From IMG/VR virus record IMGVR_UViG_3300033141_003442: a stretch of DNA of 57,992 bases. One strand, 5' to 3'. The position numbers and the translations under genes were made by a program. The notes under the pieces are model-generated. The model was not told where the DNA came from. It saw only the letters and a list, made by a program, of their open reading frames with translations, and searched no databases. The DNA comes from a virus. This document shows, piece after piece, positions 21,753-44,889 of the stretch (its first letter is position 1; the number at the start of each line of letters is the position of its first letter).

Positions 21753-22183
21753 TCTTTTTTTGCTAAGTTTTTAAGTTGTTTTAATTTTCTCATAAGTTGT
21801 ATTTCTTTTTTTCTTTCTAACTGTATCATTTTATACATTTCCTGTTTGCTTAAACGGGCTTTTTCTTTTTCTTGTTCTATTTCTTTCACTCTCTTTTTCA
21901 CATCCATCTTAGCCAATTCCATTAATTCTAATACTTTTAAAAGAGGATTACCAAATTCTTTTGGATACAGCCAACATAATCTACTAACTCCTGTTACTTG
22001 TTCTAGCTTTTTTGCTAATTCTAAAGAAGGTCTTGTATCCTGATGAGCCCATCTACATAAAGAGCCAAATGAGGCCCCAGTTGCCTGAGACAACTTCTTT
22101 AAAATTTCATAATATTGCTTTCTTAGTTTGCGGTATCGTCTTTTTGGTTTTTCTATTGGTTCGTCAAACCACTTATTCTTCAT
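21749..22183 (-). CDS. HTH DNA-binding protein with coiled-coil, basic C-terminus
   Basis: Predicted HTH (SLELAKKLEQVTGVSRLCW); last gene of the minus-strand block; its stop overlaps the stop of the convergent plus gene. Confidence 0.5.
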   Translation of the reverse strand: MKNKWFDEPIEKPKRRYRKLRKQYYEILKKLSQATGASFGSLCRWAHQDTRPSLELAKKLEQVTGVSRLCWLYPKEFGNPLLKVLELMELAKMDVKKRVKEIEQEKEKARLSKQEMYKMIQLERKKEIQLMRKLKQLKNLAKKD

Positions 22184-22322
22184 TAGCAGTGCAACAGATT
22201 ATATATACTTGCCCATCAATAGTGCACATTCCTGATGGGAATGTCCCAATAGGACATATTTCACCTGCTGGCACTATAATACAAAAATAAAGAGCAAATA
22301 AAAGTGCAAGTATTCTTTTCAT
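22173..22322 (-). CDS. Small Cys-rich protein with signal peptide (49 aa, below ORF-track cutoff); possible lysis accessory
   Basis: Strong SD AGGAGG 6 nt before ATG; MKRILALLFALYFCIIVPAG hydrophobic N-terminus; next to the amidase. Confidence 0.5.
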   Translation of the reverse strand: MKRILALLFALYFCIIVPAGEICPIGTFPSGMCTIDGQVYIICCTANEE

Positions 22323-22337
22323 TTTTAACCTCCTAAT

Positions 22338-22565
22338 TTAATATTCTACTTCTTCTTTTTCCATCCAAATTCTAAATTTCCAACCACATTCGCTACAATT
22401 GAAGTTAATTGCATTGTCAGAAATATTTTTTTTATTTGGGCAAGAAAATATTATTTTAAGTTCTTCTCCTTCTGGCCAATGCCCAAATGTATATATTTTA
22501 CCACAATTTGGACACTGCCAAATAAGTTTACAAAGTTTTTCTTTCATTTTTTTCTCCTTATTCAA
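22338..22565 (-). CDS. Small Zn-ribbon protein
   Basis: CxxC pairs (CPNCGK, CSECG). Confidence 0.5.
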   Translation of the reverse strand: MNKEKKMKEKLCKLIWQCPNCGKIYTFGHWPEGEELKIIFSCPNKKNISDNAINFNCSECGWKFRIWMEKEEVEY

Positions 22566-23094
22566 TATTTAACAAATATCTTTTAATCCCATTATTAATT
22601 AAAAATGCTGCTTTTATTTGGGCATCGGAAGAATGTAATGGGAGAAGGGGATTATCTATAAAACCTACTTCAATTAAAACAGCAGGCATTTTGGTTTTCC
22701 TTAATACATAAAAATTTCCTTCTTTAATTCCTCTGAACTTGCCTGGGACAATCTCATCAATAAATGTAGCAATATTATCTGCTAGTTTAGCACTTTTAAT
22801 TGAACCAGGATAAATCCAGATTTCCTCTCCCTTAGCATTATGTTTAGGAGAAGCATTAACATGAATACTAACAAAGGCATCTGCTTTTACACTATTTGCA
22901 ATAAAAACCCTATCTCGCAATGGCACATATATATCAGCCGTTCTGGTATAAATACAGTTTACCATATTGGATAAAAAACCACCCAAATATAATGCAATAG
23001 GCAAAACTATATCTTTTTCTTTGTATCCTGCATAAACAGCCCCTGGGTCTTTACCTCCATGCCCTGGGTCAATTACTATGGTGTATTTTTTCAT
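22558..23094 (-). CDS. N-acetylmuramoyl-L-alanine amidase (Amidase_3-type endolysin)
   Basis: N-terminal IVIDPGHGGKDPGA and downstream Zn-ligand pattern typical of Amidase_3 / CwlV-like enzymes. Confidence 0.8.
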   Translation of the reverse strand: MKKYTIVIDPGHGGKDPGAVYAGYKEKDIVLPIALYLGGFLSNMVNCIYTRTADIYVPLRDRVFIANSVKADAFVSIHVNASPKHNAKGEEIWIYPGSIKSAKLADNIATFIDEIVPGKFRGIKEGNFYVLRKTKMPAVLIEVGFIDNPLLPLHSSDAQIKAAFLINNGIKRYLLNIE

Positions 23095-23282
23095 ATCTTT
23101 TCTACCTCACTTAACAACAAATAAAACTTCCCTCTATTTGGCACTTCAACCCTTACTTGTTTAGGCTCGTCATTGCATATATGCACTACAGTGGCCTCCT
23201 CTCCACATATATTAAGCTCCTTAGTGTAAAAATTAGGTAAAATCCTTACTTTATCACCTATTTTAAAGCTGGTTTGACTCAT
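23091..23282 (-). CDS. Hypothetical protein (start moved to ATG 23282)
   Basis: ORF track 23091..23345, but the first 21 codons overlap the neighbouring gene in another frame; the in-frame ATG at 23282 has an SD-like GGAGA..AAAGG. Confidence 0.4.
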   Translation of the reverse strand: MSQTSFKIGDKVRILPNFYTKELNICGEEATVVHICNDEPKQVRVEVPNRGKFYLLLSEVEKI

Positions 23283-23466
23283 TACCTTTCTCCATCTCCA
23301 ATTCAGGAATATAATTAGAACAATACTCAATAAAAGGCCCTCCATTTTTTGTCCCAGCTGAACAATTTTGACTAAAAAGATTATTCCAATATTTACATTT
23401 TGTATTAATACAGGGGGTTTCAGCAGATTTTGCTCTTTCCACTAATTCCATCTTTTTACCTTTCAT
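23263..23466 (-). CDS. Small Cys-rich hypothetical protein
   Basis: 67-aa ORF with several Cys (CINTKCKYW, CSAG, YCSNY). Confidence 0.4.
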   Translation of the reverse strand: MKGKKMELVERAKSAETPCINTKCKYWNNLFSQNCSAGTKNGGPFIEYCSNYIPELEMEKGNESNQL

Positions 23467-23995
23467 TACTTATTTCCTCCATCTCCAAAATTTTATCTGC
23501 AATTATCTTAGCAGTTTCTTTTGGCTTATTTTCAATAATATACACTTCCTCATAAGGCAATGTAAACCGCACTAACACTTTCCTAACTGCCTCGGTTACT
23601 TCAGCGTCCTCTCTTTCCTTAGACCTCATAAAGAAAGTATATAAATTAACTCCATGAAAATCCAATAAATGAATTGTATTTAATGGCAACTTGGCTAATA
23701 AACGGTAAGCACACATATCAACTATGCTTCTGTCTGCTACAATTATCTTGTCTCTATGAACCAAATAGCTACTAATAGTGCAAAAATCTAATGCATTTTC
23801 AAAGTAATTGTAAGCTGGACGGTTAGTAAAAATCTTTTCTTTCCAAGTATCCCTTATTCCCATTTGCACCAATATCCAATGAGCAAACTCACCTACAAAG
23901 GCAAACTTTTCAGGTGGCAATAGCTTTTCAAGATAGACAAATGTCATTGTCTTGCCAATACCGTGACTTCCGCTTAATGCGTAAACTTTAATCAT
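23456..23995 (-). CDS. P-loop kinase, deoxynucleoside/nucleotide kinase-like
   Basis: Walker A SGSHGIGKT; DRS-type motif (IVADRSIVD) as in dNK-family kinases. Confidence 0.5.
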   Translation of the reverse strand: MIKVYALSGSHGIGKTMTFVYLEKLLPPEKFAFVGEFAHWILVQMGIRDTWKEKIFTNRPAYNYFENALDFCTISSYLVHRDKIIVADRSIVDMCAYRLLAKLPLNTIHLLDFHGVNLYTFFMRSKEREDAEVTEAVRKVLVRFTLPYEEVYIIENKPKETAKIIADKILEMEEISNER

Positions 23996-24007
23996 AATTT
24001 AGCTCCT

Positions 24008-24232
24008 TTACCATTTAAAAGCATTCTCTATTATTCTTACCCGTGTTACCAATCTAGGATAATCTTCCTTAAACAACTCCAGTGCTTCTTGGCTCATTAA
24101 AAATCGGTTAAATCTCTCCACATCCTCCAATTCAATAGAGCTACGCACAAGAGAAATAATTGAATCTACCTGCAATGCAATGCGTAACCAATAGTCTATG
24201 TCTGGTTTTAATTGAGTTACTTTGTTTGGCAT
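24008..24232 (-). CDS. Hypothetical protein (74 aa)
   Basis: ORF in co-directional minus-strand block. Confidence 0.4.
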   Translation of the reverse strand: MPNKVTQLKPDIDYWLRIALQVDSIISLVRSSIELEDVERFNRFLMSQEALELFKEDYPRLVTRVRIIENAFKW

Positions 24233-24235
24233 AGT

Positions 24236-24493
24236 TTACTCCTTTTTAAATAAATTTCTTACCGAATTTGATATAAATAGTTTTTTACACTCTTCTTCAG
24301 CTTTCGTGTAAAATTTAGCTACCAATTCTATTTTCTCTAATTCTCTTTCATGCTCAAATCCATAATCTTTTATATCTAAGAAATCCCGATAAGTTTGATA
24401 AGCATCATCCAAATTATCAGATATTACATATACAGTCTTATATTGACTACCAAACCCTTTAACTGTTACTTTAAAAAGACAAAGTGTATTCAT
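24236..24493 (-). CDS. Hypothetical protein (85 aa)
   Basis: ORF in co-directional block. Confidence 0.4.
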   Translation of the reverse strand: MNTLCLFKVTVKGFGSQYKTVYVISDNLDDAYQTYRDFLDIKDYGFEHERELEKIELVAKFYTKAEEECKKLFISNSVRNLFKKE

Positions 24494-24809
24494 TTATTTC
24501 CTCCTTTTTTAAATATTCTAATGTAAACAATTTTGCACAATCAGGGCATAAAATCATAACTGGCATATCCAAGGAAAATAAATCACCCTCTTCAAATGCT
24601 TGATCAAATTCTTCTTCAGTTAATTCCCATGTTACGTAAAAACATTGTTCGATAGGATACCAAAGCCGTCTAGGATGTAAAATATGGTCATTATCACAAC
24701 GTAACTTTTTAGGCAATTTACCTTCCTTATATTCTTTCGTTTCTGTTACTGGTTTGGGTTTGCTCCACCTACCACGCCTTGGACCGCAAATGAAGCCTTT
24801 AATCTCCAT
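24471..24809 (-). CDS. Zn-ribbon-containing hypothetical protein
   Basis: CGPRRG ... CPDC cysteine pairs. Confidence 0.4.
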   Translation of the reverse strand: MEIKGFICGPRRGRWSKPKPVTETKEYKEGKLPKKLRCDNDHILHPRRLWYPIEQCFYVTWELTEEEFDQAFEEGDLFSLDMPVMILCPDCAKLFTLEYLKKEEINEYTLSF

Positions 24810-25353
24810 TTACTTTTCCTCCTTTAACTTTCCATTTTCCCTCTTTTCTATCATAATAATATCCCTGTTTTTTTAGATAAATTGCCAAATTAATAGAATG
24901 AACTTTACAAACTTTACTGAATTTTGCCATGCTTCCAAATTGTTTCAAAACTGCTTCTATTCCGCCATATTTTTCAAATGCTTCGCTAGCTAAACCATGT
25001 GGAGCGTTATTATATATTGGCGGTTTGATTTTAATACCCATTTTTTTAAGTCCTTCCTGTATTGTATGATAATCAAATCCCCATAATTTCCCCATTTCTA
25101 TCGTGCCTTTTTCTTTGTATTGCTTCCTTAATTCTTCCCTTACCTTTTCTGCATCACACTCATAATGATAAAATGCGTTCCAAAGAAAAGATCCTCTGGA
25201 ATATCCAGATAAAGCACAAGCAAGGGCATCTTTGACTTTTTTAGCAAGAGTAGGATTAAGCTTGTCAGCCCACTTAAATAATTCCTTGCCTTCTTGATTT
25301 GAGATATTTAGTTTAAGTTGTTTCCACATTTTTTCTCCTCTCCCAATCTTCAT
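24799..25353 (-). CDS. Hypothetical protein (184 aa)
   Basis: ORF in co-directional block. Confidence 0.45.
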   Translation of the reverse strand: MKIGRGEKMWKQLKLNISNQEGKELFKWADKLNPTLAKKVKDALACALSGYSRGSFLWNAFYHYECDAEKVREELRKQYKEKGTIEMGKLWGFDYHTIQEGLKKMGIKIKPPIYNNAPHGLASEAFEKYGGIEAVLKQFGSMAKFSKVCKVHSINLAIYLKKQGYYYDRKEGKWKVKGGKVNGD

Positions 25354-25561
25354 TTACAAGCAACTGCAACATTTTAACGGTTCTTGAATTTTTAAACTTT
25401 ACAGGCTTTTTCCTTCTACTAGCATACCTTATATACTGGTTTAACCAACATCCAACACAATACCTTCCCTTTGGAATAGCTGGCTTTCCACAGAGGATAC
25501 ATCTACCCTCTTCCATCATTTTCCTCTGCCATTTTAACTGTCTTGATATAATTTCTTTCAT
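25313..25561 (-). CDS. Zn-ribbon protein; N-terminus paralogous to the adjacent 25564..25755 gene
   Basis: CILCGK...CVGCW; N-terminus MKEIISRQLKW resembles MKEIISSQIKW of the neighbouring ORF. Confidence 0.45.
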   Translation of the reverse strand: MKEIISRQLKWQRKMMEEGRCILCGKPAIPKGRYCVGCWLNQYIRYASRRKKPVKFKNSRTVKMLQLLVNEDWERRKNVETT

Positions 25562-25563
25562 AA

Positions 25564-25755
25564 TTACCTCCTATAATATTCTCTCTTAGCAAGTTCAATC
25601 ACTAATTGGGTAAATTTCTTTTCAAAATTCTCAATAAAATTCTTTATTTCAAACATATCTTTTTTAAGCTCTTCAAGCTCTTTTTTTATTTCTTCTTTAG
25701 ATTCTTGCTCTATCTTCTTCGGCCATTTAATTTGGCTTGAGATAATTTCCTTCAT
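25564..25755 (-). CDS. Small coiled-coil protein; N-terminus paralogous to 25313..25561
   Basis: Shared N-terminal motif MKEIIS-Q-KW. Confidence 0.4.
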   Translation of the reverse strand: MKEIISSQIKWPKKIEQESKEEIKKELEELKKDMFEIKNFIENFEKKFTQLVIELAKREYYRR

Positions 25756-25777
25756 GATTGTCCTCCATTTAATTTAT

Positions 25778-26083
25778 TTACCATTTCATCCAACTCTCTA
25801 TTACTAACTGGATTCTTCTCAATACTGCCTTTCTACAATCATTCCAACCATCTTTGTATGCACGAAGTTCGTTTTCAGGAATTTTCCAATCTTTTTTCAT
25901 TTCTTTAAGATGTGCTTCAGGGGGCAGGAAGTCAAAAAAACAGCAATGTGCATAAACATTCATTATTTCTCTTACAAATGCTTCCCAACTAAAATTTCTA
26001 CTCCAAATTTTTCTTAATTCTTCTTCAAAATCCATTGATGTCTTTACTACAATAATCTTTCCTTCATTAACTTCTTGTCCCAT
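25778..26083 (-). CDS. Hypothetical protein (101 aa)
   Basis: ORF with SD. Confidence 0.45.
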   Translation of the reverse strand: MGQEVNEGKIIVVKTSMDFEEELRKIWSRNFSWEAFVREIMNVYAHCCFFDFLPPEAHLKEMKKDWKIPENELRAYKDGWNDCRKAVLRRIQLVIESWMKW

Positions 26084-26159
26084 TTTTTCCTCCTAGGCTC
26101 AAGACAAATAGTTATCTTTTTTCCTTAATAATATCCCAATCTCGCTTATACTCATCATA

Positions 26160-26423
26160 CTAAGCAAATATGAGGGTTGAGATATCATCAATTTTCTTAT
26201 ATCTCTTTTGTAAATACTTCTGTATTTTTTCAAATACAAACGGATAAAATAATCTTTCTTTGTCTTTATTCGTTAATTTTCTAAATTCTTTTTTGGAATA
26301 AGTTGAATTAATGATTATTATTCTTTTATGAGTTCTAACAGTATCATAAATAAATGATGGATTTTGTAAGTAATTTTTTTGACCAGCAACTCTAACTTTT
26401 ATTCCGAAAGTAATTCGCATCAT
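26160..26423 (-). CDS. Hypothetical protein (87 aa)
   Basis: ORF in co-directional block. Confidence 0.35.
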   Translation of the reverse strand: MMRITFGIKVRVAGQKNYLQNPSFIYDTVRTHKRIIIINSTYSKKEFRKLTNKDKERLFYPFVFEKIQKYLQKRYKKIDDISTLIFA

Positions 26424-27057
26424 GGCCTCCTATAATCATTAATAATTTAATTACCAATAACTCAATATACCTATCCCACTCTTTCTTTCTTCTAAGATGG
26501 TGATAACAAACTGTGCATAAACCTGCACTATGGTGTTTTCTCAATCTTTTACAATGGGTGCAAATTATCTTATTACCTCTTGTTACCTCTCTTATTCCAT
26601 ATCTTATTTTTTTATCCCGCTTGAGATATCCATAACAATGGACGCACATCCCTTTGCTTTTATGAATACGCAGTTGCCCACATCTCTTACAGATAATAAA
26701 ACGGATATGCCTTCTTCTGGGGTCATTAAAAAGAATTTCTTTGAAGTAATACTGAGGCTCGCCTAATAATATGGCAAAAAGGTATGTATCATCCTCAATT
26801 ATTTTGGGTATTAATGCTAATTTATCATCAAAAGTCATTTTCTTAATCTTAGCAACCATTTTTTCTATCAGCTTCATTTTGTTATTTTTTCTGGTGTTCA
26901 TTCCAACAAATTTAATCCTCGTCCATAACTCCATAATTTCTCCACTAACTCTTTTCTCTAATATCCAATCTAGTTGTCTCTCCGTAAAACATGCCTTTGC
27001 CGTGCTTAAATCAATAGGTGCATCAAGTTGTATTGATGGCTGTGGGCAAATCATCAC
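26392..27057 (-). CDS. Multi-Zn-ribbon protein
   Basis: Repeated CxxC...CxxC units (CKRCGQ...CVHCYGY; CTHCKR...CTVCYHH). Confidence 0.5.
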   Translation of the reverse strand: MMICPQPSIQLDAPIDLSTAKACFTERQLDWILEKRVSGEIMELWTRIKFVGMNTRKNNKMKLIEKMVAKIKKMTFDDKLALIPKIIEDDTYLFAILLGEPQYYFKEILFNDPRRRHIRFIICKRCGQLRIHKSKGMCVHCYGYLKRDKKIRYGIREVTRGNKIICTHCKRLRKHHSAGLCTVCYHHLRRKKEWDRYIELLVIKLLMIIGGHDANYFRNKS

Positions 27058-28169: not shown

Positions 28170-28712
28170 TTATTTCTCCCTACACAATTTTTCTTTCAAA
28201 GCTTTATAATCTTCATCAGATACTTCAATTTCTATACCATCAATAATTATTGTATGCTTTTTAGGAATGGGGCGGGCATACTCATAAAATACACAGTCAA
28301 AACTCTTACCTTCTCTAAATCTATTCTCATCAAGTGAGTGCACGCATACATAAGGACGACTACTTCCATCAGCATAAGCTACATAAATTCTTTTTTTCCA
28401 TTCTCCATCAGGCTGAGTAATTTCAATACCAGACCGACTAACTTCAATAAGTTCTCCAAATTTAAAGGCGTAACCTTCAAACATTTCATCAATCCAACAG
28501 CACCGCCCATTGTCTTCTTCAATATGATAATAGTCGTCCCTGACTTCTCTTATAGTTACAACTTGTCCGCAAAATTTCCTGTTCGTCTTGAGAAATAGGA
28601 ATGATTTCCCAAGAAAGCTAATGTTATCACATACCAATTTATTTCCTCTTAACATTGCTTTCCACTGACGAACCCTTACTCTATTTCCTACTTTATAACG
28701 CATTCTATTCAT
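28170..28712 (-). CDS. Hypothetical protein (180 aa)
   Basis: ORF in co-directional block. Confidence 0.45.
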   Translation of the reverse strand: MNRMRYKVGNRVRVRQWKAMLRGNKLVCDNISFLGKSFLFLKTNRKFCGQVVTIREVRDDYYHIEEDNGRCCWIDEMFEGYAFKFGELIEVSRSGIEITQPDGEWKKRIYVAYADGSSRPYVCVHSLDENRFREGKSFDCVFYEYARPIPKKHTIIIDGIEIEVSDEDYKALKEKLCREK

Positions 28713-29640
28713 CCTCCTTCTCTCTTAATATTTCTTTTAATTGTCCTCTATGATGACAATCCTCTAAATGAACTAAACGACCATTCTCTTCAAACTGCAA
28801 GTAAATTTCTTTACCCTCTGTATAATATTCGCTCTGCCTAACCTTTGTAAATTGCAGGATAGGATATTCTTTCCGTTTATCTTCGCCGTCATACAGAATT
28901 TCAAAACCATAGGCAGGCCGCTGCAATGAGCTTTCCCTGCCATAAGGTTTTAACTTCCCATATTCTTCTTTGGCCTGCCAGAATAAAAAGATTAAACTTC
29001 TATGTCCTTCCTGTAACTTACGAATAAACTTATTTACTCTATCATACCTGCCAGTTAAATCTGCCCAGTCCCAAATGATTATGCTGTTTTTACTTATTGC
29101 TAAAGGTTTCATGAAAGGGTCTGTAATGGGAATAAATCTAACTTTTCCTTGTTCTTCCCATTCAATCATTTGTTCTACATCAACCAGTTTAGCAAATCTG
29201 TAAGCGATATTTTCCTTACATTCAGAATAATAGTAATGGACGGTCAATCCTCTTTGTAAATAAAAAAGAGCTATGTTAATAGCAAAGTAACTCTTTCCCT
29301 GTCCATAACTCGCATAAATCAAAATGATGTCTGAAGGAAACAATAAACATTTATATCTAATGCCAAACGGTAAGGGTATCTTAAGCTCTGGCTTTAACAT
29401 ATCTTGGAAAGAAGTGGGCGTGGTATGCTTGATGATGCGGTAATCTCTTGAATTGACTTTCTCTACCTTGCCAAATTCAACAGCCTTGTTCAATATTTTA
29501 TATGCCGTTGAATATTGACTGCTGTTTAGTCCTAAAGTTTGCATCATCTCTTTTATAGTAAAAACAAATTCACCGTCATAGTCTTGGAAACTGTCTAAAT
29601 ACTCCAAGACCAACTTTAAAACAGAACCTTTCTGCGTCAT
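28705..29640 (-). CDS. RecA-superfamily P-loop ATPase (DnaB-C/KaiC-like) with N-terminal wHTH-like region; putative replication protein
   Basis: Walker A ASYGQGKSYF; Walker B-like IIIWDWADL. Confidence 0.5.
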   Translation of the reverse strand: MTQKGSVLKLVLEYLDSFQDYDGEFVFTIKEMMQTLGLNSSQYSTAYKILNKAVEFGKVEKVNSRDYRIIKHTTPTSFQDMLKPELKIPLPFGIRYKCLLFPSDIILIYASYGQGKSYFAINIALFYLQRGLTVHYYYSECKENIAYRFAKLVDVEQMIEWEEQGKVRFIPITDPFMKPLAISKNSIIIWDWADLTGRYDRVNKFIRKLQEGHRSLIFLFWQAKEEYGKLKPYGRESSLQRPAYGFEILYDGEDKRKEYPILQFTKVRQSEYYTEGKEIYLQFEENGRLVHLEDCHHRGQLKEILREKEDE

Positions 29641-29663: not shown

Positions 29664-29816
29664 TTAGTCTTTGATTTTAAAATATTGCTTCAATGCCTGC
29701 CTTATTATATAGCTCCGATTGACATCTTTTTTCTCGCATTCTTTATCAATCCTTACCAAATAATCAAGAGGTAAAGAAACAGTTACCGTGGTATTTCTTC
29801 CTCGTTGCATTTTCAT
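29664..29816 (-). CDS. Ribbon-helix-helix (CopG/Arc-like) DNA-binding protein (50 aa, missed by ORF track)
   Basis: Manual translation gives MKMQRGRNTTVTVSLPLDYLVRIDKECEKKDVNRSYIIRQALKQYFKIKD; ATGA overlap with the upstream stop. Confidence 0.5.
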   Translation of the reverse strand: MKMQRGRNTTVTVSLPLDYLVRIDKECEKKDVNRSYIIRQALKQYFKIKD

Positions 29817-30454
29817 TTTGTTTTGTCCTCCTTATCAATTTTAATATATTCTTTTAAAGCCTGTCTTGTTAATTGTTCAATTAACATTCTTCCAACTGGC
29901 ATTCTGATAGGATGTGGTATCACAAAAGTTTCTTGATATATATCAAGGGCTACAGTAAGAGCCTGTCTTAATTCAAAAGGAGTAAGTGAACAATCCAAAA
30001 TAAGATTTAACATAAAATCAACCACTTCTTTAAATTCATCATCATAAAGATACCTTTCTCTTGGATTATCCTTTCTAATTGCATTTCTTTCATTATTAAA
30101 TTGTTTTATACAAAATGAGCTAAAATTATATGTATGTCTTATATCTTCTAATTGCTTTTCATCCAATACCATCAAATACTTTTCTGTATCTATATCAAAC
30201 ATCATACTTTTCAATGTTTCGCCTGCAACTTCCAATGCTCCAAATCCATTTTCTTCTATTTCTTGAGCGATTAATTTCATAATCTCACGCAGTATTCTCA
30301 CTCTTGACCTACGCTTTATTTCTTCTTCAAATTGTGCATACTCATATTTATTAAATGTTTCTATTATTTTAAGAGCAAATATTCTTTCAATACTAACACC
30401 AAAACTTTCATTTCTAATTCTTAAATCCAAATAATCATCTATTTTCTTACTCAT
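29813..30454 (-). CDS. Hypothetical protein (213 aa)
   Basis: ORF in co-directional block. Confidence 0.45.
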   Translation of the reverse strand: MSKKIDDYLDLRIRNESFGVSIERIFALKIIETFNKYEYAQFEEEIKRRSRVRILREIMKLIAQEIEENGFGALEVAGETLKSMMFDIDTEKYLMVLDEKQLEDIRHTYNFSSFCIKQFNNERNAIRKDNPRERYLYDDEFKEVVDFMLNLILDCSLTPFELRQALTVALDIYQETFVIPHPIRMPVGRMLIEQLTRQALKEYIKIDKEDKTK

Positions 30455-30713
30455 AAGCTTTCCTTTATTAAAATAAGTTTTTCTTTTATTTCAAGTTTGC
30501 TTAATAAATTGAAATAATGTTTATTCTTCATTTCCTCCTTTAATCTTCTTTAATTCCATTGGGTGCAAATAAAAAATGTTATCACCTATCTTTACTTTAA
30601 TTTTGACTATTGTGTTGAAAAAGGAAATACCTCCAATTACTTTCGCCGTCTTCCCTATATGGGCAGGGCAAAACTTCAACAATGTCTCCTATTTCAAAAG
30701 GGTGTTCCATTTT

Positions 30714-32044: not shown

Positions 32045-32073
32045 ATGATAAAACAAGTAATTTATTTTGTCAA
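32045..32073 (-). promoter_or_regulatory. Sigma70-like promoter TTGACA-N17-TATCAT (minus strand)
   Basis: Plus-strand tgtcaa 32068-32073 and atgata 32045-32050, 17-nt spacer; part of a 35-bp element also present at 39935-39965. Confidence 0.45.
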
Positions 32074-35777: not shown

Positions 35778-35828
35778 TTTAATTCCCTAAAAATAAAAAA
35801 CCCACACAGACAGAACAAGACTTTTTTG

Positions 35829-35894
35829 ACATGGTGAAAGGCCAAGGTGTCTTGCTTGTCCGTGCGGGCTTGGTTTCAAAATGCCTTTCACCAT
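35829..35894. promoter_or_regulatory. 12-bp perfect inverted repeat (ATGGTGAAAGGC ... GCCTTTCACCAT) with 40-nt GC-rich spacer, just downstream of a candidate minus-strand promoter
   Basis: Arms at 35831-35842 and 35883-35894; candidate promoter TTGACA-N17-TAAGAA at 35904-35932 (minus); related GC-rich motifs CCGTGCGGGC / CCCGTGCAGGC. Confidence 0.45.
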
Positions 35895-36012
35895 ATTGAT
35901 TTATTCTTACCAGATTATTTTTAACTTGTCAATATCAAAAATGCCTACACAAGCAAACAGGTGAGAAAGGGAGGAGAAAAGGTGGGACCTGTCTGCCCGT
36001 GCAGGCTGTGAT

Positions 36013-37260
36013 TTAAAATAATTCTTCTAATTCTTTTGCTTTGGTGTCAATCATCAAGTAGATTTCTGTAGCTTCCGCCTCATCCGAAATATCATAAATA
36101 CTATTATAACCCTTTTCTTTCAAAACCTCATTCACTAGTTCACGGTCATAATTTGACAATTGCTCTTCTAATTCCACAAGCCATTGTGCGGGAGGTTGAG
36201 CTTTCTTTTCTGGTTTAGCCTTTTTAGGTTTTGGAGGAGAAGTAGCAGGCTTATTCTTTGCTTCCCATTCCTTAAATTTTTCTACAAACCTATCTATTTT
36301 CTTTGTAGCTTTTTCTTTTACATATTCCATCGAGCAATTAACACTCTTTGCTACTGTTTCAATGTATTCTTCTACTCTTTCTTTATCTAATTTTTTTTTA
36401 GCAATCACATCATCAAAAAATATTATTCGTTCAGGTTCAGGAGCTTGGTCTTCAATTTGTTTGGGTTTGTCGTCCTTTTTTTCTTTTCCAGCCTCCATAT
36501 CCTTTATATCAATCACTTTACCTTGGAAAGTTACTTCTTCCTTTTTAGGTTCTTCTTCAATTGTAGACAATACAATGTCCTCTTCTTCCTCAGAAATTGC
36601 TATATCTAATTCAGGTGTTTTGCGTTTCATTTTAAGCATTTTCAAAACTGCACTCTTTCTCATCATAGCTTCAGGCCATAAATGCCAAGGACTATCTTTA
36701 GTTCCAGCTTGTTCAGCCTTTCTCCATGAAAGAGACATTTTTCTTCTTTTTTCAATTTCTTCCATTCTGATTATATCGAAATCCACTCTATCATCCTTTT
36801 TCCAAAGAGCGTAAGCACAAACAGCTTTCCCTCTGTCTTTTAATGCAATTTTATGGTGCAAATAAGCATCAGTGCCCAATTGATAATTAAACTCATCATT
36901 CTCATAAACTACATGGGCTTCCACTTCAGCATCTGTTACTCTGTTTACCAACTCAATAAGACCTTGATAACCAATTTGGGCATTGCATTCTATTGGATGT
37001 CCTTGTTTTCTATTATTACGCCTAGGTATCAAATAAACATTATCTCCGCCTGGTAGTAATCCCCACTCTGCACATTTCAATAATGCACTGAGCAAACTTT
37101 CAGGAGTGCATTGTTGCAATTGAGGGTTTTTGAAAAGAGCGTTCCAAAAGGCTGCAATCAGGACATCTTTCTTCATTCCTTTAGGTAGCACTTTTAACTT
37201 CTCACTTGTTTCAGGAGAAACTAATTTGGCCTTGATTTCTGCTAGTTGATTTTTTTTCAT
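36013..37260 (-). CDS. recT: RecT-family single-strand annealing recombinase
   Basis: N-terminal region (TPESLLSALLKCAEWGLLPGGDNVYLIPRRN) fits the RecT family; acidic/basic C-terminal tail. Confidence 0.65.
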   Translation of the reverse strand: MKKNQLAEIKAKLVSPETSEKLKVLPKGMKKDVLIAAFWNALFKNPQLQQCTPESLLSALLKCAEWGLLPGGDNVYLIPRRNNRKQGHPIECNAQIGYQGLIELVNRVTDAEVEAHVVYENDEFNYQLGTDAYLHHKIALKDRGKAVCAYALWKKDDRVDFDIIRMEEIEKRRKMSLSWRKAEQAGTKDSPWHLWPEAMMRKSAVLKMLKMKRKTPELDIAISEEEEDIVLSTIEEEPKKEEVTFQGKVIDIKDMEAGKEKKDDKPKQIEDQAPEPERIIFFDDVIAKKKLDKERVEEYIETVAKSVNCSMEYVKEKATKKIDRFVEKFKEWEAKNKPATSPPKPKKAKPEKKAQPPAQWLVELEEQLSNYDRELVNEVLKEKGYNSIYDISDEAEATEIYLMIDTKAKELEELF

Positions 37261-39934: not shown

Positions 39935-39963
39935 ATTATAAAACAGTTAAATTATTTTGTCAA
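39935..39963 (-). promoter_or_regulatory. Consensus sigma70 promoter TTGACA-N17-TATAAT (minus strand)
   Basis: Plus-strand tgtcaa 39958-39963 and attata 39935-39940 with exact 17-nt spacer. Confidence 0.6.
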
Positions 39964-39996
39964 GGGTAAATTTAAATTAAATCCCCAAAAACTATC

Positions 39997-40025: not shown

Positions 40026-40074
40026 CTTCTTTTAAGTATTCTACTGTATGCTTCTTATGGAGGGATAGTAAATC

Positions 40075-40350
40075 ATGCCAAAACGGCTTGTTTACCACAC
40101 CAAAACAGAAGAAAATAAAATCGTAACCCTCTATCCGCCAAGGCTTCATTCTTTTGAACAGATTTTGAATTACATTGCATTCATTTGCAAAGGAGTAGAG
40201 AAAGGTTTGATTTCTGAAACTCAAGCCACCACAGTTAAGGAGTTGATTAGCATTGCAATAGAGGCCGTCCGTAAGAAACAAGAATTTGAGAAGTATGATG
40301 AAGTAGTAAGGTTCAGAGAGAAAGATGAAGAGGAAGACGAGGAAGAATAA
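40075..40350 (+). CDS. Small protein with acidic C-terminal tail (EEEDEEE); lone plus-strand gene inside the minus-strand block
   Basis: SD GGAGGG 9 nt before ATG; own promoter; the antisense minus ORF 39952..40374 looks spurious. Confidence 0.5.
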   Translation: MPKRLVYHTKTEENKIVTLYPPRLHSFEQILNYIAFICKGVEKGLISETQATTVKELISIAIEAVRKKQEFEKYDEVVRFREKDEEEDEEE

Positions 40351-40373
40351 ATTTATATTGGCACTATTTAGCA

Positions 40374-40706
40374 TTATTTATCTTCCCTCCAAATTACCCA
40401 AACATTTGTTTTGACTGTATATAAAATAGTAATTCGCTTTATCTTAGCCGTTTTACATCTCTGCTTAACAAAATATTGTGCTATTTTTATTGCATCAATA
40501 GGAGAAAGGTTAGGTTTAAGGGAAATAGAAGTTTTATAAGTGTTTCTGGTAATTTTTCTAGTGGAAACCCAGTTTGCAGGCTCACTATTTACTATTTGGT
40601 CTTGGGATGGAAAGTTATGGGGCAATTCTATTTCTTGCCAGATATGGTAACCTATAGCAACTGAGGCAATCCAGAGAGCAATTAGTAAGATAATTAAGTC
40701 TTTCAT
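40374..40706 (-). CDS. Membrane-anchored hypothetical protein (N-terminal TM helix)
   Basis: N-terminus MKDLIILLIALWIASVAIGY. Confidence 0.45.
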   Translation of the reverse strand: MKDLIILLIALWIASVAIGYHIWQEIELPHNFPSQDQIVNSEPANWVSTRKITRNTYKTSISLKPNLSPIDAIKIAQYFVKQRCKTAKIKRITILYTVKTNVWVIWREDK

Positions 40707-40969
40707 TAATCAACTCCTAGAATTGCTTTTAAACATTCAACCTCAGTTTCTACTTGGCAGACAATACATAATTTGCCAAGGTGAAGACCATATCGCCATT
40801 CAGTACACCATACTCCACCTTTCTCTAAGTCTCCGATATAGACTAAACTATTATACATTTCCACTTTCAATGGCGAAAAAGAGAGAGGCACGCCTATAAT
40901 TTTATCTTCACAAAAATATAAAATAGTTTCATTTTTTGTTACATGAATATTGTAAGGTGGCAATTTCAT
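40706..40969 (-). CDS. Hypothetical protein (87 aa)
   Basis: ORF track; ATGA overlap with the upstream small ORF. Confidence 0.45.
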   Translation of the reverse strand: MKLPPYNIHVTKNETILYFCEDKIIGVPLSFSPLKVEMYNSLVYIGDLEKGGVWCTEWRYGLHLGKLCIVCQVETEVECLKAILGVD

Positions 40970-41142
40970 TTAACAAGCTCCTTTTCCAGTCTTTTGCATT
41001 GATTATGTAGGGCACTTTCAATTACTTTCCTAAACGATTTATTTGCCATTATCCGTCTTGTGCCTTTTACATGCGACCTATGTCCATAACGGCTAAACCC
41101 CACCTTGGGCAATTTCTTCTTGAGTATTTTTTCTTTAAACAT
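40966..41142 (-). CDS. Small basic protein (about 58 aa, below ORF-track cutoff)
   Basis: SD GGAGG 6 nt before ATG at 41142; stop overlaps the next start. Confidence 0.45.
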   Translation of the reverse strand: MFKEKILKKKLPKVGFSRYGHRSHVKGTRRIMANKSFRKVIESALHNQCKRLEKELVK

Positions 41143-41144
41143 TG

Positions 41145-41765
41145 CTAGCCTCCTTTTTCATCTAAGCAAACTAATAAACCTTTCATTTTTTGCTCCGTTA
41201 TAGTGTTAACGACTTCAAACTTAATAAATTTGTTATATTCATCTTGATAAATAGAAATAGTAACGGGTTTATTTTTCTCATCATTAAATTTTTCAACTTG
41301 AGTGGCTATTTCTTTTAAGAGCTTTGCATTTACAGTTAGTGTTATAATTGGATTTTCTTTAGGATATGCTTTATCTGTATCAGGATATGAAATATCTTTG
41401 TTTTTTATGGACATTGTAAAGACATTATCTAAATCTGTTGTTACCAAGATTGTCTTATCTTCTTTTTGAGATACCATGACATTTTCAAGAATAGGAAGAG
41501 GGCTTTTAGGGATTAACTTTCGAATTTTTGTTACTTCATTTTTGCTAAGATAGAAATCTCGCTCTTGTTTATATTCAAGCCCAGTTTCAGGATATTCCTC
41601 ATAAGGTAAATTTGGCCTTGTTACTTCTATTAATAAATACCTATCAGTAACAACTGTTTTTTCTTTAGTCACTTTAATAACTTGTGAAATATCAAAGTCA
41701 TCTGAACTGTAATCACTTTCCTTTTCAAGTAAATTTGCTATTTGAAGATTGTATTTATTTAGCAT
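41145..41765 (-). CDS. Hypothetical protein (206 aa)
   Basis: ORF with SD. Confidence 0.5.
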   Translation of the reverse strand: MLNKYNLQIANLLEKESDYSSDDFDISQVIKVTKEKTVVTDRYLLIEVTRPNLPYEEYPETGLEYKQERDFYLSKNEVTKIRKLIPKSPLPILENVMVSQKEDKTILVTTDLDNVFTMSIKNKDISYPDTDKAYPKENPIITLTVNAKLLKEIATQVEKFNDEKNKPVTISIYQDEYNKFIKFEVVNTITEQKMKGLLVCLDEKGG

Positions 41766-41789
41766 TTTTATTACCTCCTTCTCTTTTTT

Positions 41790-42311
41790 TTATAAATAAA
41801 ATTCTTTTCCCAAAACATACTGCAATGCTTCAGCAATATGGGTTGTCTTGATATTATCTTCTTTGTCTATTTCGCTAATAGTTTTAGCAACTCTTAAAGT
41901 TGTCTCTAATTCAGAAGGAAGCATCCCTTTGGTTTTATATGCAGTTTCCAGAAGATTTAACCCTTCTTTATCTATTTTGCTTTTATCAAATTCAAGATAC
42001 TCAAAGTTAAAGCAGTTAATTGCTGTAAAAGTCATATCCGTTTGAGGAAGATTTATTTGATACTTTTTAATTTCTTCTGGCGTGCATTTACATATTCTAT
42101 TTGTGGAATTGAAGTTACCGCAAGGGCAAGGTTTTTTGACATAAATGATTTCTTCCAAAAGGTATCTTTGTTCTTCAGGAATGGTCTTTTTTAATCCGAA
42201 TACTACTTGTTGAATGAAATATACATCACTCGTAATAATCAATAATGAATGTTTGCCATTTAAAGCAACATCTAAAACTCTTAAAAAATGTGGTGAATTA
42301 AATTTAATCAT
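41790..42311 (-). CDS. ComM/YifB (Mg-chelatase-like AAA+) C-terminal-domain-like protein; tentative
   Basis: CPCGNFNSTNRICKCT Zn-binding-like motif and C-terminal helix TTHIAEALQYVLG. Confidence 0.35.
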   Translation of the reverse strand: MIKFNSPHFLRVLDVALNGKHSLLIITSDVYFIQQVVFGLKKTIPEEQRYLLEEIIYVKKPCPCGNFNSTNRICKCTPEEIKKYQINLPQTDMTFTAINCFNFEYLEFDKSKIDKEGLNLLETAYKTKGMLPSELETTLRVAKTISEIDKEDNIKTTHIAEALQYVLGKEFYL

Positions 42312-42396
42312 TTTAGCCTCCTTTCTTAATCATTTATCCATTTACAAATAATCCATCCTGTTAACCAAAACGCTATTAAATAACCAAAAAAATCAA

Positions 42397-42588
42397 TCAT
42401 CTTTGCTTCCTCCTTGTTTCTTTTGCAATTTTGTTTCTTCTTCTTCGTTTTAGAAATGTCTTTATAAGATGTCCTCTTTTTCTAGTAGAAGGCCTTTTAC
42501 CAGTAAGATTGAATTTATTTTGGCCAAATAAAATGTCATGATATTCAAAGAATTTTGTTAATAGTTGTTGGTATGTTTTATAATTCAT
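42397..42588 (-). CDS. Small basic protein (63 aa)
   Basis: ORF track; Arg/Lys-rich C-terminus. Confidence 0.35.
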   Translation of the reverse strand: MNYKTYQQLLTKFFEYHDILFGQNKFNLTGKRPSTRKRGHLIKTFLKRRRRNKIAKETRRKQR

Positions 42589-42857
42589 TTTGTTCTCCTT
42601 TTCACAAGCAATTTAGTCAAGCCGTCCTCTGCACCATCAACTTGCTTTCTTCTTTGTTCTTCCCTAATTTCTGCCTGTAAATAATAAATAGCACTTTCAA
42701 TATTATTTAATTCTCTTTGTTTAGCTACCTCAGTCATCATAGTATGCGATTTTTCTAATATTTCTTTTGTTTTTAGCAATCTTTGTAAAGTTTCTAATTT
42801 CCCCATTTCAAGCCCTCCTTTCAAAATAAAAAAGCCCGATGCTCCATAAAGGAACAC
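42585..42857 (-). CDS. Hypothetical protein (90 aa)
   Basis: ORF track. Confidence 0.4.
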   Translation of the reverse strand: MFLYGASGFFILKGGLEMGKLETLQRLLKTKEILEKSHTMMTEVAKQRELNNIESAIYYLQAEIREEQRRKQVDGAEDGLTKLLVKRRTK

Positions 42858-42893
42858 CGAGCCTAAATTTTTAGGGTGGGTGCTTAATTATTC

Positions 42894-43082
42894 TTATAAA
42901 TCAACTTCTGAATGCTTCCCGCAATACTCTTTTTCCATTTCCTCCCATTTTTGTTTTTCTTTATAATAGCAATCTTCACAAAGTCCGTGTGCCCATTCTG
43001 CTTGAGGTGGAAAAATCCTTCCACATCTTTTACAAGTAAAAGTTTCTTCTTCCCATCCTATTTCTTCTTTTTCTTTTGTCAT
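42894..43082 (-). CDS. Zn-ribbon protein
   Basis: CKRCGR...CEDCY. Confidence 0.45.
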   Translation of the reverse strand: MTKEKEEIGWEEETFTCKRCGRIFPPQAEWAHGLCEDCYYKEKQKWEEMEKEYCGKHSEVDL

Positions 43083-43262
43083 TTACTTTACCTCCTTTCT
43101 CTTAAATTCTTAGATATTCAACGCTTCTTTTATTTTTGCTATTTTCTCTGCTTCAGTTTCAAATGTTTTCATTTTTGAGATATTTTCAAGAAACTCTTCA
43201 AGTGCGACGCTGGCATCCTTTATATTGATATATGTCAGTTCAATAATATATACAGGCACAAC

Positions 43263-43526
43263 TCAATCTGATATTTCAATCACCGCTTTACCATTTCTCA
43301 AGGCGAAATTAGCCTCCCCACCACAATTATTATGCCAATTATGTCCATCCCAGTAGTCATATTTAACAATGAATTTCTGCTTTGTATCATATCCTGTTAC
43401 AGCATCAGGCACTTGCTTAGACACCCAATCCAATATTGCTTGGATATCTTCTTTAGCCTTTTTGGTTGCTCTTTCCCTTCTTTTCATTCTTTCAATTATC
43501 CCTGTAATTCTTTCTATTTCTTGCAT
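43263..43526 (-). CDS. Hypothetical protein (87 aa)
   Basis: ORF track. Confidence 0.4.
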   Translation of the reverse strand: MQEIERITGIIERMKRRERATKKAKEDIQAILDWVSKQVPDAVTGYDTKQKFIVKYDYWDGHNWHNNCGGEANFALRNGKAVIEISD

Positions 43527-43541
43527 TGTTACTTACCTCCT

Positions 43542-43790
43542 TTAAATAAATTTAGCTAAATTATTTACTTCTTTGGCAAAAGGTGAAAATAAAGGCGGTT
43601 TATAAGGTCTTTTTCTACACCAAATGTCAATTATGGCCTTAGCTAATAAATAGTTGTCTTCTAGCATGTCATTTGAACAAGCTCCGCTATTTAGTGCTTG
43701 CTGAGCCATTTCATACATTGTTTGTTTAGAGTTTTCTAGCATTTCATTTATTTGCTCTTTAACTTGTTTGAGTTTTTGTTCTTCAGTCAT
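43542..43790 (-). CDS. Hypothetical protein (82 aa)
   Basis: ORF track. Confidence 0.4.
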   Translation of the reverse strand: MTEEQKLKQVKEQINEMLENSKQTMYEMAQQALNSGACSNDMLEDNYLLAKAIIDIWCRKRPYKPPLFSPFAKEVNNLAKFI

Positions 43791-43809
43791 TTTTACTTAC
43801 CTCCTTTCT

Positions 43810-44040
43810 TTATATAGTATTATTTAATGCATTTTTAATAGCTTGTATCTTGCCTCTTTCATAATCATTGTAAGGTTTATGCTTTACAACTTTCTTTAAA
43901 ATATTCATAGATGCTCTTTTAGCGATTTGACAGCCATGATAATACCCCAATTTATACGTTTTTTCCCCATCGTTGTTTGTTACAAACTCTCCATTATGAT
44001 AATAGCCTTTTCCTATATAATGTTTACCATTTTGATACAT
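43810..44040 (-). CDS. Hypothetical protein (76 aa)
   Basis: ORF track. Confidence 0.4.
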   Translation of the reverse strand: MYQNGKHYIGKGYYHNGEFVTNNDGEKTYKLGYYHGCQIAKRASMNILKKVVKHKPYNDYERGKIQAIKNALNNTI

Positions 44041-44042
44041 CG

Positions 44043-44255
44043 TTACTCCTCTCCTTTCTTCAAAATTTTCTCCGTCACCCGCTCAGTACCAATAAGATGC
44101 CGACGGAGAGTAGTTATTTCAGCCTGCAATTTGGCAAGGCATTGAGGGCAAATTCCATGTGTTACGCCCGTGCCTTGCTTTTGCCCTATTACCTTTTTGC
44201 ACCAAGCACAGATGATAGTCATAGTATCACCTCCCTTCAAAATATTCCTTTTCAC
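44043..44255 (-). CDS. Zn-ribbon protein
   Basis: CAWCKK...CPQC. Confidence 0.45.
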   Translation of the reverse strand: MKRNILKGGDTMTIICAWCKKVIGQKQGTGVTHGICPQCLAKLQAEITTLRRHLIGTERVTEKILKKGEE

Positions 44256-44430
44256 AATGCCTAGAGCAGAAAACTAAATGCAAATCCGTTTCAAAAGCAC
44301 GCCGTATTTTTACGGGATAGCGTGCTTTCTTTTCATAGCAATTAGAACAAACATCAGGATAGTTTCCCTTTTTGAGCCAGTCCCGATGAGGATGAAATAC
44401 TTCCCAGTTTTCAGGATATTTGATTTTCAT
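44227..44430 (-). CDS. Zn-ribbon protein
   Basis: CSNCYEKK...CSRHCEKE. Confidence 0.4.
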   Translation of the reverse strand: MKIKYPENWEVFHPHRDWLKKGNYPDVCSNCYEKKARYPVKIRRAFETDLHLVFCSRHCEKEYFEGR

Positions 44431-44447
44431 TTTATCACCTCCTTTTT

Positions 44448-44744
44448 TTATTTCAACGGGATAACTATCCCGTCATACCGCCAGTATTTCAATTTATCTT
44501 TGTCAGAATGCAAACAAAGAGGCATTCCTCTAGGGTCTGAGCAAATATCAACATGAAGTCCCCATTTCTTGGCTATTTCCTTAACTTTCTTTTCAAGTTT
44601 TATTACTCTTTTTTCTTGTCTAGGAGTTAGGCCGTAATTGCAATGCTGTGTGTATAGATTGTGTAGAGAGCGAGCCAACCTTTTCAATTCTTCATAATCT
44701 GCTAGAAACTCTTTTAAATCCTCAATGTTTTTGATGTTTTTCAT
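44448..44744 (-). CDS. Hypothetical protein (start placed at ATG 44744, which has an SD)
   Basis: GGGAGG 6-7 nt upstream of ATG at 44742-44744; the ORF track used an upstream TTG. Confidence 0.45.
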   Translation of the reverse strand: MKNIKNIEDLKEFLADYEELKRLARSLHNLYTQHCNYGLTPRQEKRVIKLEKKVKEIAKKWGLHVDICSDPRGMPLCLHSDKDKLKYWRYDGIVIPLK

Positions 44745-44757
44745 TTTCAAACCTCCC

Positions 44758-44889
44758 TTATTGTTCTTTCTTTAAAAAGCTTACGATTAATATTTTCCTG
44801 TCTTCAAAGCACCACCACATTAAAAAGTGTAATCTTTCAAGCCTTAGTCCTTTTGTTACCTTTACCACTTCTTTGATTTTTTCTAACAT
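44758..44889 (-). CDS. Small hypothetical protein (43 aa), first ORF of the leftward early transcript
   Basis: SD GGAGGTGA 7 nt before ATG; lies just downstream of promoter 44922-44951. Confidence 0.4.
   Translation of the reverse strand: MLEKIKEVVKVTKGLRLERLHFLMWWCFEDRKILIVSFLKKEQ

Follow-up and report, generated by a model that had tools for sequence, protein, structure and literature searches.

We analysed IMG/VR virus record IMGVR_UViG_3300033141_003442, a stretch of 57,992 nucleotides (nt) referred to below as the window, with a focus on four open reading frames (ORFs) of fewer than 60 amino acids (aa) that a sequence-only reading had put forward as overlooked genes. The source is a complete podovirus-like bacteriophage genome of about 57.9 kb, and the four ORFs lie within its dense leftward early/middle operons:

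22173..22322, minus strand: Cys49, 49 aa, hydrophobic at its N-terminus (signal peptide or anchor) and ending in an anionic, Cys-rich tail (from hydropathy and haplotypes)
29664..29816, minus strand: RHH50, a 50-aa ribbon-helix-helix (RHH) DNA-binding protein by its matches to Pfam RHH_1 and PHROG 876
40966..41142, minus strand: Basic58, a 58-aa basic protein with a predicted disordered N-terminal arm and two-helix hairpin (AlphaFold2 (AF2) model, protein clusters)
44758..44889, minus strand: Lead43, a 43-aa protein, the first ORF after the early leftward promoter (from conservation and the promoter)

Coordinates and translations of all four were reproduced exactly. Each is preceded by a Shine-Dalgarno (SD) sequence of the AGGAGG or GGGAGG type, 6-10 nt 5' of the ATG, and is packed against its neighbours, which bears out the strong initiation sites and stop/start coupling claimed for them. 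RHH50 has AAGGAGG 10 nt 5' of its ATG, which overlaps the stop of the preceding 213-aa ORF as ATGA. Cys49 has AGGAGG 6-7 nt 5' of its start, and its 3' end runs 11 nt into the beginning of the following ORF. Basic58, with AAGGAGG 6-7 nt upstream, begins 2 nt past the preceding stop and overlaps the downstream 87-aa ORF by ATGA. Lead43 has GGGAGGTGA 5' of its ATG and sits directly behind TTGACA-N18-TGcTAAAAT. Over the whole block from 21.7 to 45 kb, five ATG-initiated ORFs of 40-59 aa carry a strong SD on the coding strand, and none does on the opposite strand; the random expectation is 0.26 +/- 0.48, with a maximum of 2 (200 Markov-1 randomisations of the same composition).

Relatives for comparison were taken from IMG/VR and metagenome contigs at two levels of divergence (labelled L001 and so on). 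Frameshifted or missing copies in related phages would have spoken against the proposed genes; instead, all four ORFs are intact, full length, in frame and under purifying selection. Selection was measured by Nei-Gojobori counts, and distinct haplotypes were pooled for counts of variable sites at the first, second and third codon positions. All four ORFs show an excess of third-position variation, and ratios of nonsynonymous to synonymous change (pN/pS) of 0-0.44. The nine nucleotide haplotypes of RHH50 (variable sites 13/3/34) encode two proteins: seven give the same protein and differ from one another by synonymous changes only. Against five loci, the RHH50 gene of the window has 7-12 substitutions, every one synonymous; against L005/L007, pN/pS is 0.125/0.63. 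Cys49 has five haplotypes (8/4/14; pN/pS 0.16-0.32), as does Basic58 (23/18/41; pN/pS 0.25-0.44), and Lead43 has two (12/5/17; pN/pS 0.19). The annotated frame is the sole one open in every haplotype. Alternative frames contain stops in most or all haplotypes, and the few single reverse-complement frames that are open are each open in one haplotype. Two points temper this evidence: the relatives of Cys49 are close (84-100%), and the coding signal of Lead43 comes from one comparison. Judging from sequence and its conservation, we conclude that the four ORFs are almost certainly real genes. The overall explanation, in which these genuine small genes also have the roles proposed for each below, appears likely.

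The description of the four ORFs as unannotated holds relative to the track of ORFs of at least 60 aa on which the sequence-only reading relied; the gene callers behind the Joint Genome Institute (JGI), ENA and Logan sets call all four. GenBank holds three: RHH50 as a 'ribbon-helix-helix domain-containing protein', and Cys49 and Lead43 as hypothetical proteins. The identical proteins there (MHA1396120.1, MHA1396140.1 and MHA1396177.1; locus tags ACTSSF_...) are filed under a metagenome-assembled genome (MAG) named 'Candidatus Heimdallarchaeaceae archaeon'. Murein hydrolases, sigma-70-type promoters, RecT, YopX and a P22-type portal are all present on that contig, which very probably belongs to a bacteriophage and was wrongly binned with the MAG of an Asgard archaeon. 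In the window, nt 1..114 recur exactly at the end (57879..57992), and from this exact 114-nt terminal repeat the genome is circularly closed and complete at about 57,878 bp. A megablast of the minus-strand block against GenBank phages gave zero matches. Rfam and tRNA scans of the window returned nothing, hence nothing that overlaps the four ORFs, and NCBIfam and PADLOC gave no match above their cutoffs for the small proteins and their neighbours. Cys49, Basic58 and Lead43 are confined to the lineage and fall into no known family; the family of RHH50 is well known, and the protein is ordinary within it.

The evidence is thinnest for Lead43, with its two haplotypes. Upstream of it we find the following site, which is the strongest early promoter in this genome:

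44922..44951, minus strand: promoter-like TTGACA-N18-(TGc)TAAAAT upstream of Lead43 (11 of 12 positions matching, extended -10)

A short ORF of no known family, immediately behind a promoter, might have arisen by chance or might be a regulatory leader peptide (an upstream ORF), and Lead43 would be the most plausible of the four for such a reading. We hold this to be most improbable. Lead43 is 76% identical in L009 and L012, where it is internal and has different genes on both sides, and it remains intact there, with the third-position excess given above. A leader peptide tied to one downstream gene would not keep this pattern; as the downstream gene differs in the relatives, we rejected that candidate. 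The SD is strong, and the low chance expectation for the block argues against random ORFs. Because it is conserved with both flanks replaced, we regard Lead43 as an autonomous small protein. Weighing against any closer assignment, it has no Pfam or PHROG family, a sequence search of the PDB found nothing significant, and the literature offered no match to it or to Basic58. It may be a small early protein of the cytoplasm and, in this genome, the first to be made from the strongest early promoter.

RHH50 can be placed with more precision. Pfam RHH_1 (PF01402) scores it at 37.4 bits, where the gathering cutoff is 20.5 (E=2.1e-9), with residues 11-45 covering profile positions 2-36 of the 39-position model, so that the RHH assignment of the sequence-only reading stands. 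The RHH_1 domain is also precomputed for the identical protein in eight loci, and PHROG 876, 'transcriptional repressor', is matched at E=9.6e-6. Judged from the residues, the succession TVTVSLP, LDYLVRIDKECEKK, DVN, RSYIIRQALKQYF suits a beta-strand of alternating polar and hydrophobic residues followed by a helix, a short turn and a second helix; a sequence search of the PDB found no significantly similar solved RHH structure. We consider RHH50 very probably a DNA-binding regulator. Its immediate surroundings are as follows:

28705..29640, minus strand: p311, a winged-helix plus RecA/DnaB-like P-loop ATPase, invariant 3' partner of RHH50 (motifs, profile, AF2)
29813..30454, minus strand: up213, an ORF that varies among loci, located between the 75-nt element and RHH50 (no family match in Pfam or PHROG)
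30460..30535, minus strand: a non-coding element of 75 nt, almost invariant, that bears three TTATTTCAA-type sites; a candidate operator or iterons (alignment)

At least 21 contigs encode the identical RHH50 protein, and a p311 gene of 311-320 aa always follows it. p311 carries Walker A (ASYGQGKS) and Walker B (IIIWD) motifs, and its remote relatives are the DnaB_C/KaiC-like helicase halves of Prim-Pol-helicase fusion proteins. Searched against the PDB as a single sequence it matches nothing significantly; its family profile matches DnaB helicases at E=4e-8. The AF2 model (predicted local distance difference test (pLDDT) 89, predicted template modelling score 0.78) has a winged helix and a RecA-like core, and the best Foldseek matches are RAD51, DnaB and KaiC (E~1e-10). 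With p311 a DnaB/RecA-like ATPase, RHH50 therefore heads a replication-ATPase gene. RHH membership, the fold of the partner and the co-occurrence of the two are direct observations, as are the integrity, initiation signals, coupling, conservation and purifying selection of the four ORFs; from them we infer the DNA targets discussed below, the export of Cys49 and every physiological role. One observation limits the pairing: a 38%-identical p311 relative (L023) follows RecT with no RHH gene upstream, so the linkage is lineage-specific. Gene content upstream of RHH50 is mosaic among loci, with ORFs of 80, 95, 126, 128 or 213 aa; up213 is missing in L003, L004, L006 and L007, and a shorter homologue of 128 aa takes its place in L001, L015 and L019. 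In these last three loci, and not in the window, a TnpB gene (Cas12f1-like_TNB, 345 aa, IS200/605-type) sits precisely between the RHH gene and p311 (L001 ~6700..7800; L015 7281..8318; L019 1499..2536). Its closest genome match, at 70%, comes from a contig of 2.7 kb in a Woesearchaeota bin.

RHH50 shows weak sub-threshold matches to the CopG_antitoxin, HicB-like and BrnA antitoxin models. That it belongs to a type II toxin-antitoxin system, and is not a phage transcription regulator, is nevertheless exceedingly unlikely. The antitoxin models score far under their cutoffs (16.1 bits against 28 for CopG_antitoxin, PF12441; 17.5 against 60 for BrnA), and the 50-aa protein has no C-terminal toxin-binding extension. 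Furthermore, the gene invariably downstream encodes the DnaB/RecA-like ATPase and no toxin, and PADLOC finds no match for the locus.

The 75-nt element consists of an inverted pair of sites at 30486..30517 (TTATTTCAA-N14-TTGAAATAA) and a third, direct copy at about 30468..30476. Nowhere else in the window does such an inverted pair occur, nor does it in any of 100 shuffles. We found the element 5' of the RHH unit in about 13 loci, across mosaic contexts: its distance from the RHH ATG is 33-37 nt in L003, L004, L006, L016, L017 and L020-22, and in the other loci, the window among them, a single ORF separates the two. Its conservation is not coding, because the ATG is missing in L004 and L005, the frame differs in L003 and a 2-nt deletion occurs in L007; the 76-77-aa versions of RHH50 made by gene callers, which would turn the element into a mini-ORF or an N-terminal extension, were rejected. 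A role for TTATTTCAA as a dispersed motif was also discarded, as it is not enriched genome-wide (8 occurrences vs 4 expected). At 30521..30710 (minus strand), a gene of about 70 aa (KVGDxVxILP-type, intact in L003 and L005) is broken by a deletion of about 20 nt into pieces of 37 aa and 52 aa; it is a probable pseudogene or assembly error.

Because the RHH50 gene heads the ATPase gene behind this conserved element, the likeliest target of RHH50 is its own unit. As a CopG/Arc-type protein it would dimerise through its N-terminal beta-strand, insert the resulting two-stranded ribbon into the major groove and bind repeated sites cooperatively, repressing transcription. RHH50 might thus autoregulate its own unit and set helicase expression, in the fashion of CopG-repB. 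That the TTATTTCAA element is the actual binding site we propose tentatively, and several points weigh against it. There is no evident sigma-70-like promoter inside the element, and a TTGAAA-16-TTyAAT match at this position would start transcription within the SD. Adjacent RHH sub-sites are typically closer to each other than the sites here, with their spacing of 18-23 bp, and no covariation between RHH50 variants and the element is seen in the aligned loci. It might just as well be the winged-helix domain of p311 that uses the element.

This last point leads to an alternative that we find rather unlikely: the element would be a replication origin or a set of iterons bound by the p311 winged helix, or else a recombination joint, and RHH50 would act elsewhere, on palindromes of the TAGA-N5-TCTA type at the late promoter, as an early/late switch. 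These palindromes lie in a gene-poor control region of 1.4 kb (44900..46347) between the leftward early operon and the divergent rightward capsid operon, which also contains clustered TAGAAT/ATTCTA-type repeats (45170..45240) and a G-rich tract (46060..46110). They are listed here with a second candidate binder:

45202..45216, no strand assigned: perfect palindrome TTAGAAccaTTCTAA, non-coding, kept with a change at the centre in L157 and L159-L161
46144..46158, plus strand: palindrome TTAGAAtaaTTCTAA, before the capsid gene
46162..46174, plus strand: palindrome AAGAAtggTTCTT, overlapping the -35 TTGACA (46173..46178) of the rightward promoter
21749..22183, minus strand: HTH144, with a basic N-terminus, a Cro/CI-type helix-turn-helix (HTH) and a K/E-rich coiled coil (weak HTH_3 and phrog_18104 matches)

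The sequence-only reading had pointed to operator-like palindromes and named the RHH protein as their candidate regulator. Those that it probably meant do exist: perfect TTAGAA-N3-TTCTAA is confined to 45202..45216 and 46144..46158, the related AAGAATGGTTCTT at 46162..46174 overlaps the -35 and is conserved in relatives, and AAGAATGGTTCTTGACA is invariant in L157 and L159-L161. As targets of RHH50 they are plausible, as a prediction only. Their perfection, their restriction to the control region, their conservation and their overlap with a -35 speak for such a role, as does the distance of 9 bp, centre to centre, between the two 4-bp boxes, which is the geometry of the P22 Arc operator. The element, for its part, is AT-rich, with three repeats and A-tracts, and stands just 5' of the replication ATPase unit at a mosaic boundary, as an origin or a joint might. 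However, 17-bp palindromes suit HTH dimers equally, so that RHH50 has a rival binder in the Cro-like HTH144, as well as a rival and closer site in the TTATTTCAA element, and nothing ties the palindromes to RHH50 specifically. The retrieved control regions do not discriminate between the binders, as no contig among them lacks HTH144: a scan of IMG/VR with TTTAGAANNNTTCTAAA was swamped by chance matches, and a scan with AAGAATGGTTCTTGACAA and a capsid-gene anchor retrieved no relatives lacking HTH144. We keep autoregulation of its own unit as the preferred role of RHH50, with the palindromes as the alternative target.

HTH144 is also the constant companion of Cys49, whose other neighbours are:

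22338..22547, minus strand: a Zn-ribbon-like 69-aa gene between the amidase and Cys49 (sub-threshold zinc-ribbon Pfam matches)
22558..23094, minus strand: endolysin, an N-acetylmuramoyl-L-alanine amidase (Pfam Amidase_3, 161 bits)

Cys49 had been described as a Cys-rich signal-peptide protein next to the amidase. It is indeed Cys-rich, with five Cys that are invariant across haplotypes, but it does not adjoin the amidase directly: the order is Amidase_3, Zn-ribbon, Cys49, HTH144, and the Zn-ribbon-like gene accompanies Amidase_3 in relatives. Residues 4-22 form a single hydrophobic segment, with a Kyte-Doolittle value of 2.32 over a 14-residue stretch. By hydrophobicity and n-h-c layout only, the arrangement MKR / ILALLFALYFCIIV / PAG suits a signal peptide; against this, the best cleavage site, between VPA and G, has Pro at -2. 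The tail comprises about 30 residues, is anionic and contains four Cys (pI of the predicted mature protein, 4.05). Cys49 is likely to be exported or membrane-anchored: the N-terminal segment would export or anchor the protein, placing the tail outside the cytoplasm, where its four Cys probably form two disulfides. The family is small, with only 2 clusters in 5.8e9 proteins.

Since no holin adjoins the amidase, the sequence-only reading had suggested that Cys49 might assist lysis. A component of a lysis cassette working with the endolysin, be it a holin or pinholin with a single transmembrane (TM) segment, an antiholin or a spanin-like protein, has some appeal: Cys49 is the sole ORF with a hydrophobic segment near the endolysin, it is downstream of an endolysin in every context, and in size and Cys content it resembles o-spanins of the lambda Rz1 kind. 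We nonetheless judge this improbable. Cys49 tracks HTH144 and not the type of endolysin. The two genes occur together in the window and in 7 of 7 HTH144-anchored loci, and both are absent in L001, L002, L005, L007, L015, L018 and L019, among which L002, L005, L007 and L018 keep the same Amidase_3 at 84-89% identity. In these four the endolysin, with or without the Zn-ribbon gene, closes the operon or strand. Elsewhere (L016, L017 and L029-L033), Cys49 directly abuts a different endolysin, Peptidase_M15_3, and its left homology boundary is its own SD, which links the gene to HTH144 and not to either endolysin. A TM segment beside an endolysin is thus what Cys49 shares with holins; retention with that endolysin is what it lacks. 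Nor does it look like an o-spanin: there is no canonical lipobox (LYF precedes C14, not [LVI][ASTVI][GAS]) and no i-spanin partner beside it, the Zn-ribbon and HTH144 neighbours being without TM segments. No PHROG lysis family matches Cys49, and a holin-like gene with two TM segments lies elsewhere, far from the endolysin, at 8329..8586 (plus strand; 85 aa, charged C-terminus, weak PHROG holin match).

Co-inheritance with HTH144 and loss in relatives with the same amidase leave a lysis role for Cys49 unsupported, and this pattern of presence and absence argues for an optional accessory module. Quite probably, the Cys49 gene is accessory and not part of the core lysis set. Cys49 and HTH144 would form an optional, mobile two-gene module of the 'moron' type at the end of the operon, and Cys49 would most likely act on the envelope, in exclusion or host modification. 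Two further observations concern this region and the envelope. Endolysins are swapped at the same position within one lineage, with Amidase_3 and Zn-ribbon in the window (22338..23094) vs Peptidase_M15_3 in L016 (15503..15889) and L017 (11728..12114). In the rightward block, 11032..11406 (plus strand) encodes a 124-aa protein with a lipoprotein-like signal (…FLGC), a candidate envelope protein.

Basic58 deserves its description as basic, with a pI of 10.9. It forms eight protein-database clusters at 79-100% identity, and is 66-74% identical in L009-L012, on a par with its neighbours. Two of these lie downstream:

40374..40706, minus strand: p110, a protein with an N-terminal TM segment (residues 4-22), stable 3' partner of Basic58 (synteny)
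40706..40969, minus strand: p87, an ORF between Basic58 and p110, in the window lineage only (also L013 and L014)

In four of four divergent loci (L009-L012), the Basic58 stop overlaps the start of p110 directly, and the TM-rich p140 comes next. The upstream gene varies: it is the clamp-like p206 in most loci and another gene in L011. In the AF2 model (pLDDT 75), a disordered basic arm (residues 1-18) precedes two helices (19-33 and 35-57). Basic58 may be a small adaptor that binds nucleic acid or a membrane protein, and translational coupling would keep it in a fixed ratio to p110; our confidence in an adaptor made stoichiometrically with p110 is low. Against it, Basic58 has no match in Pfam, PHROG, NCBIfam or PADLOC, and a Foldseek search with its model was empty. 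A resemblance to bL34 noticed by eye was rejected, with an hhalign probability of 0.2% and no Pfam match at E<=1. The clamp-like 206-aa gene itself, at 41145..41765 (minus strand), matches the PHROG 'DNA polymerase processivity factor' at E=9.6e-6. A single ORF encodes it in the window, L009 and L010, and two ORFs do in L012 (10001..10634); in the 99%-identical L013 (9430..9998), it is also split by the JGI calls.

Other features of the leftward block may be noted. A further 49-aa ORF at 43110..43259 (minus strand), with a GTG start and no obvious SD, is absent from the list made by the sequence-only reading; the JGI annotation of contig L013, which is nearly identical, includes it as a gene (7936..8085). 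Two promoter-like sites, a perfect TTGACA-17-TATAAT (39935..39963, minus strand) and one matching at 11/12 (32045..32073, minus strand) and a strong terminator with a 14-bp stem (42832..42864, minus strand) split the block into transcription units. The intergenic region before RecT (35800..36060) contains two copies, about 118 nt apart, of a short module in which TTGATATTGACA (-35)-N18-AAGAAT is combined with a GC-rich hairpin, AGCCyGCACGGrCA; only the cores of the two copies are similar.

In terms of annotation, a cutoff of 60 aa loses real, selected genes of phage early regions: here four to five in 23 kb, one of which is the probable transcription regulator RHH50. These four genes amount to an ordinary completion of the annotation and do not overturn current understanding. 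RHH50, the upstream element and the helicase gene make up a compact, testable regulatory unit in the replication module of an uncultured phage lineage. The Cys49-HTH144 pair is a clean case of an optional accessory module swapping in behind unrelated endolysins, and Cys49, if exported as we infer, is a candidate envelope effector.

Several known systems resemble parts of this picture. Lambda Rz1-type o-spanins and the exclusion lipoproteins Llp of T5 and Cor of phi80 are small phage envelope proteins. Like them, Cys49 is very small, predicted to be exported, has conserved Cys and is found at an operon end near lysis genes; unlike them, it lacks a lipobox and an i-spanin, is optional, is paired with an HTH protein and matches no family. 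The Cys49-HTH144 pair is closer to 'moron' modules with a Cro/CI-like regulator, being likewise optional among relatives that are otherwise collinear, and inserted between the last operon gene and convergent structural genes. It differs from these in that we found no promoter or terminator of its own; transcription reaches it by read-through from the endolysin gene, across a 15-nt gap.

A more distant likeness is to alpha-defensins, which are not known outside mammals. The C-terminal 22 residues of Cys49 form a gap-free alignment with CysIII-CysVI of human defensin 5, sharing the C-x9-C-x9-CC spacing, both invariant glycines and an aromatic residue, and only 7 of 5000 permutations with Cys fixed reach the Cys49 score against a defensin hidden Markov model built from an informal set of sequences. 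However, Defensin_1 (PF00323) scores 16.6 bits vs a cutoff of 21.4, PDB matches have E=0.2-1, only four of the six Cys of the C-x-C-x4-C-x9-C-x9-CC array are present, and the tail is anionic, not cationic. This post hoc, sub-threshold resemblance is most likely convergence or chance. It is very doubtful that the Cys49-HTH144 module encodes an exported disulfide mini-protein with an anionic defensin-like hairpin, acting as a non-lytic peptide effector or signal. Were it so, Cys49 would represent a new kind of extracytoplasmic phage peptide, serving for example in receptor masking or superinfection exclusion, or as a cue sensed via the HTH protein. Eukaryotes carry defensin-like Cys modules fused to phage-type peptidoglycan hydrolases (PMC6339383, PMC7379824), and Cys49 would then be a prokaryotic-virus counterpart of these, although the Cys spacing differs. 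Eukaryotic Cys-rich repeats of the rusticalin type were rejected as kin, their pattern being Cx6Cx6-7Cx8Cx7CC with six Cys.

The closest parallel concerns RHH50. With its above-cutoff RHH_1 domain, it is a minimal RHH protein of about 45-53 aa, like CopG (pMV158) and Arc and Mnt of P22. Unlike CopG, its partner is a winged-helix plus DnaB/RecA-like ATPase and not the RepB rolling-circle initiator; unlike both CopG and Arc, the candidate sites are spaced as widely as noted above, and the partner linkage is lineage-specific. What the RHH50 unit does share with copG-repB is its layout: the regulator gene stands directly 5' of a replication gene on a common transcript, with repeated direct and inverted sites just upstream of the unit.

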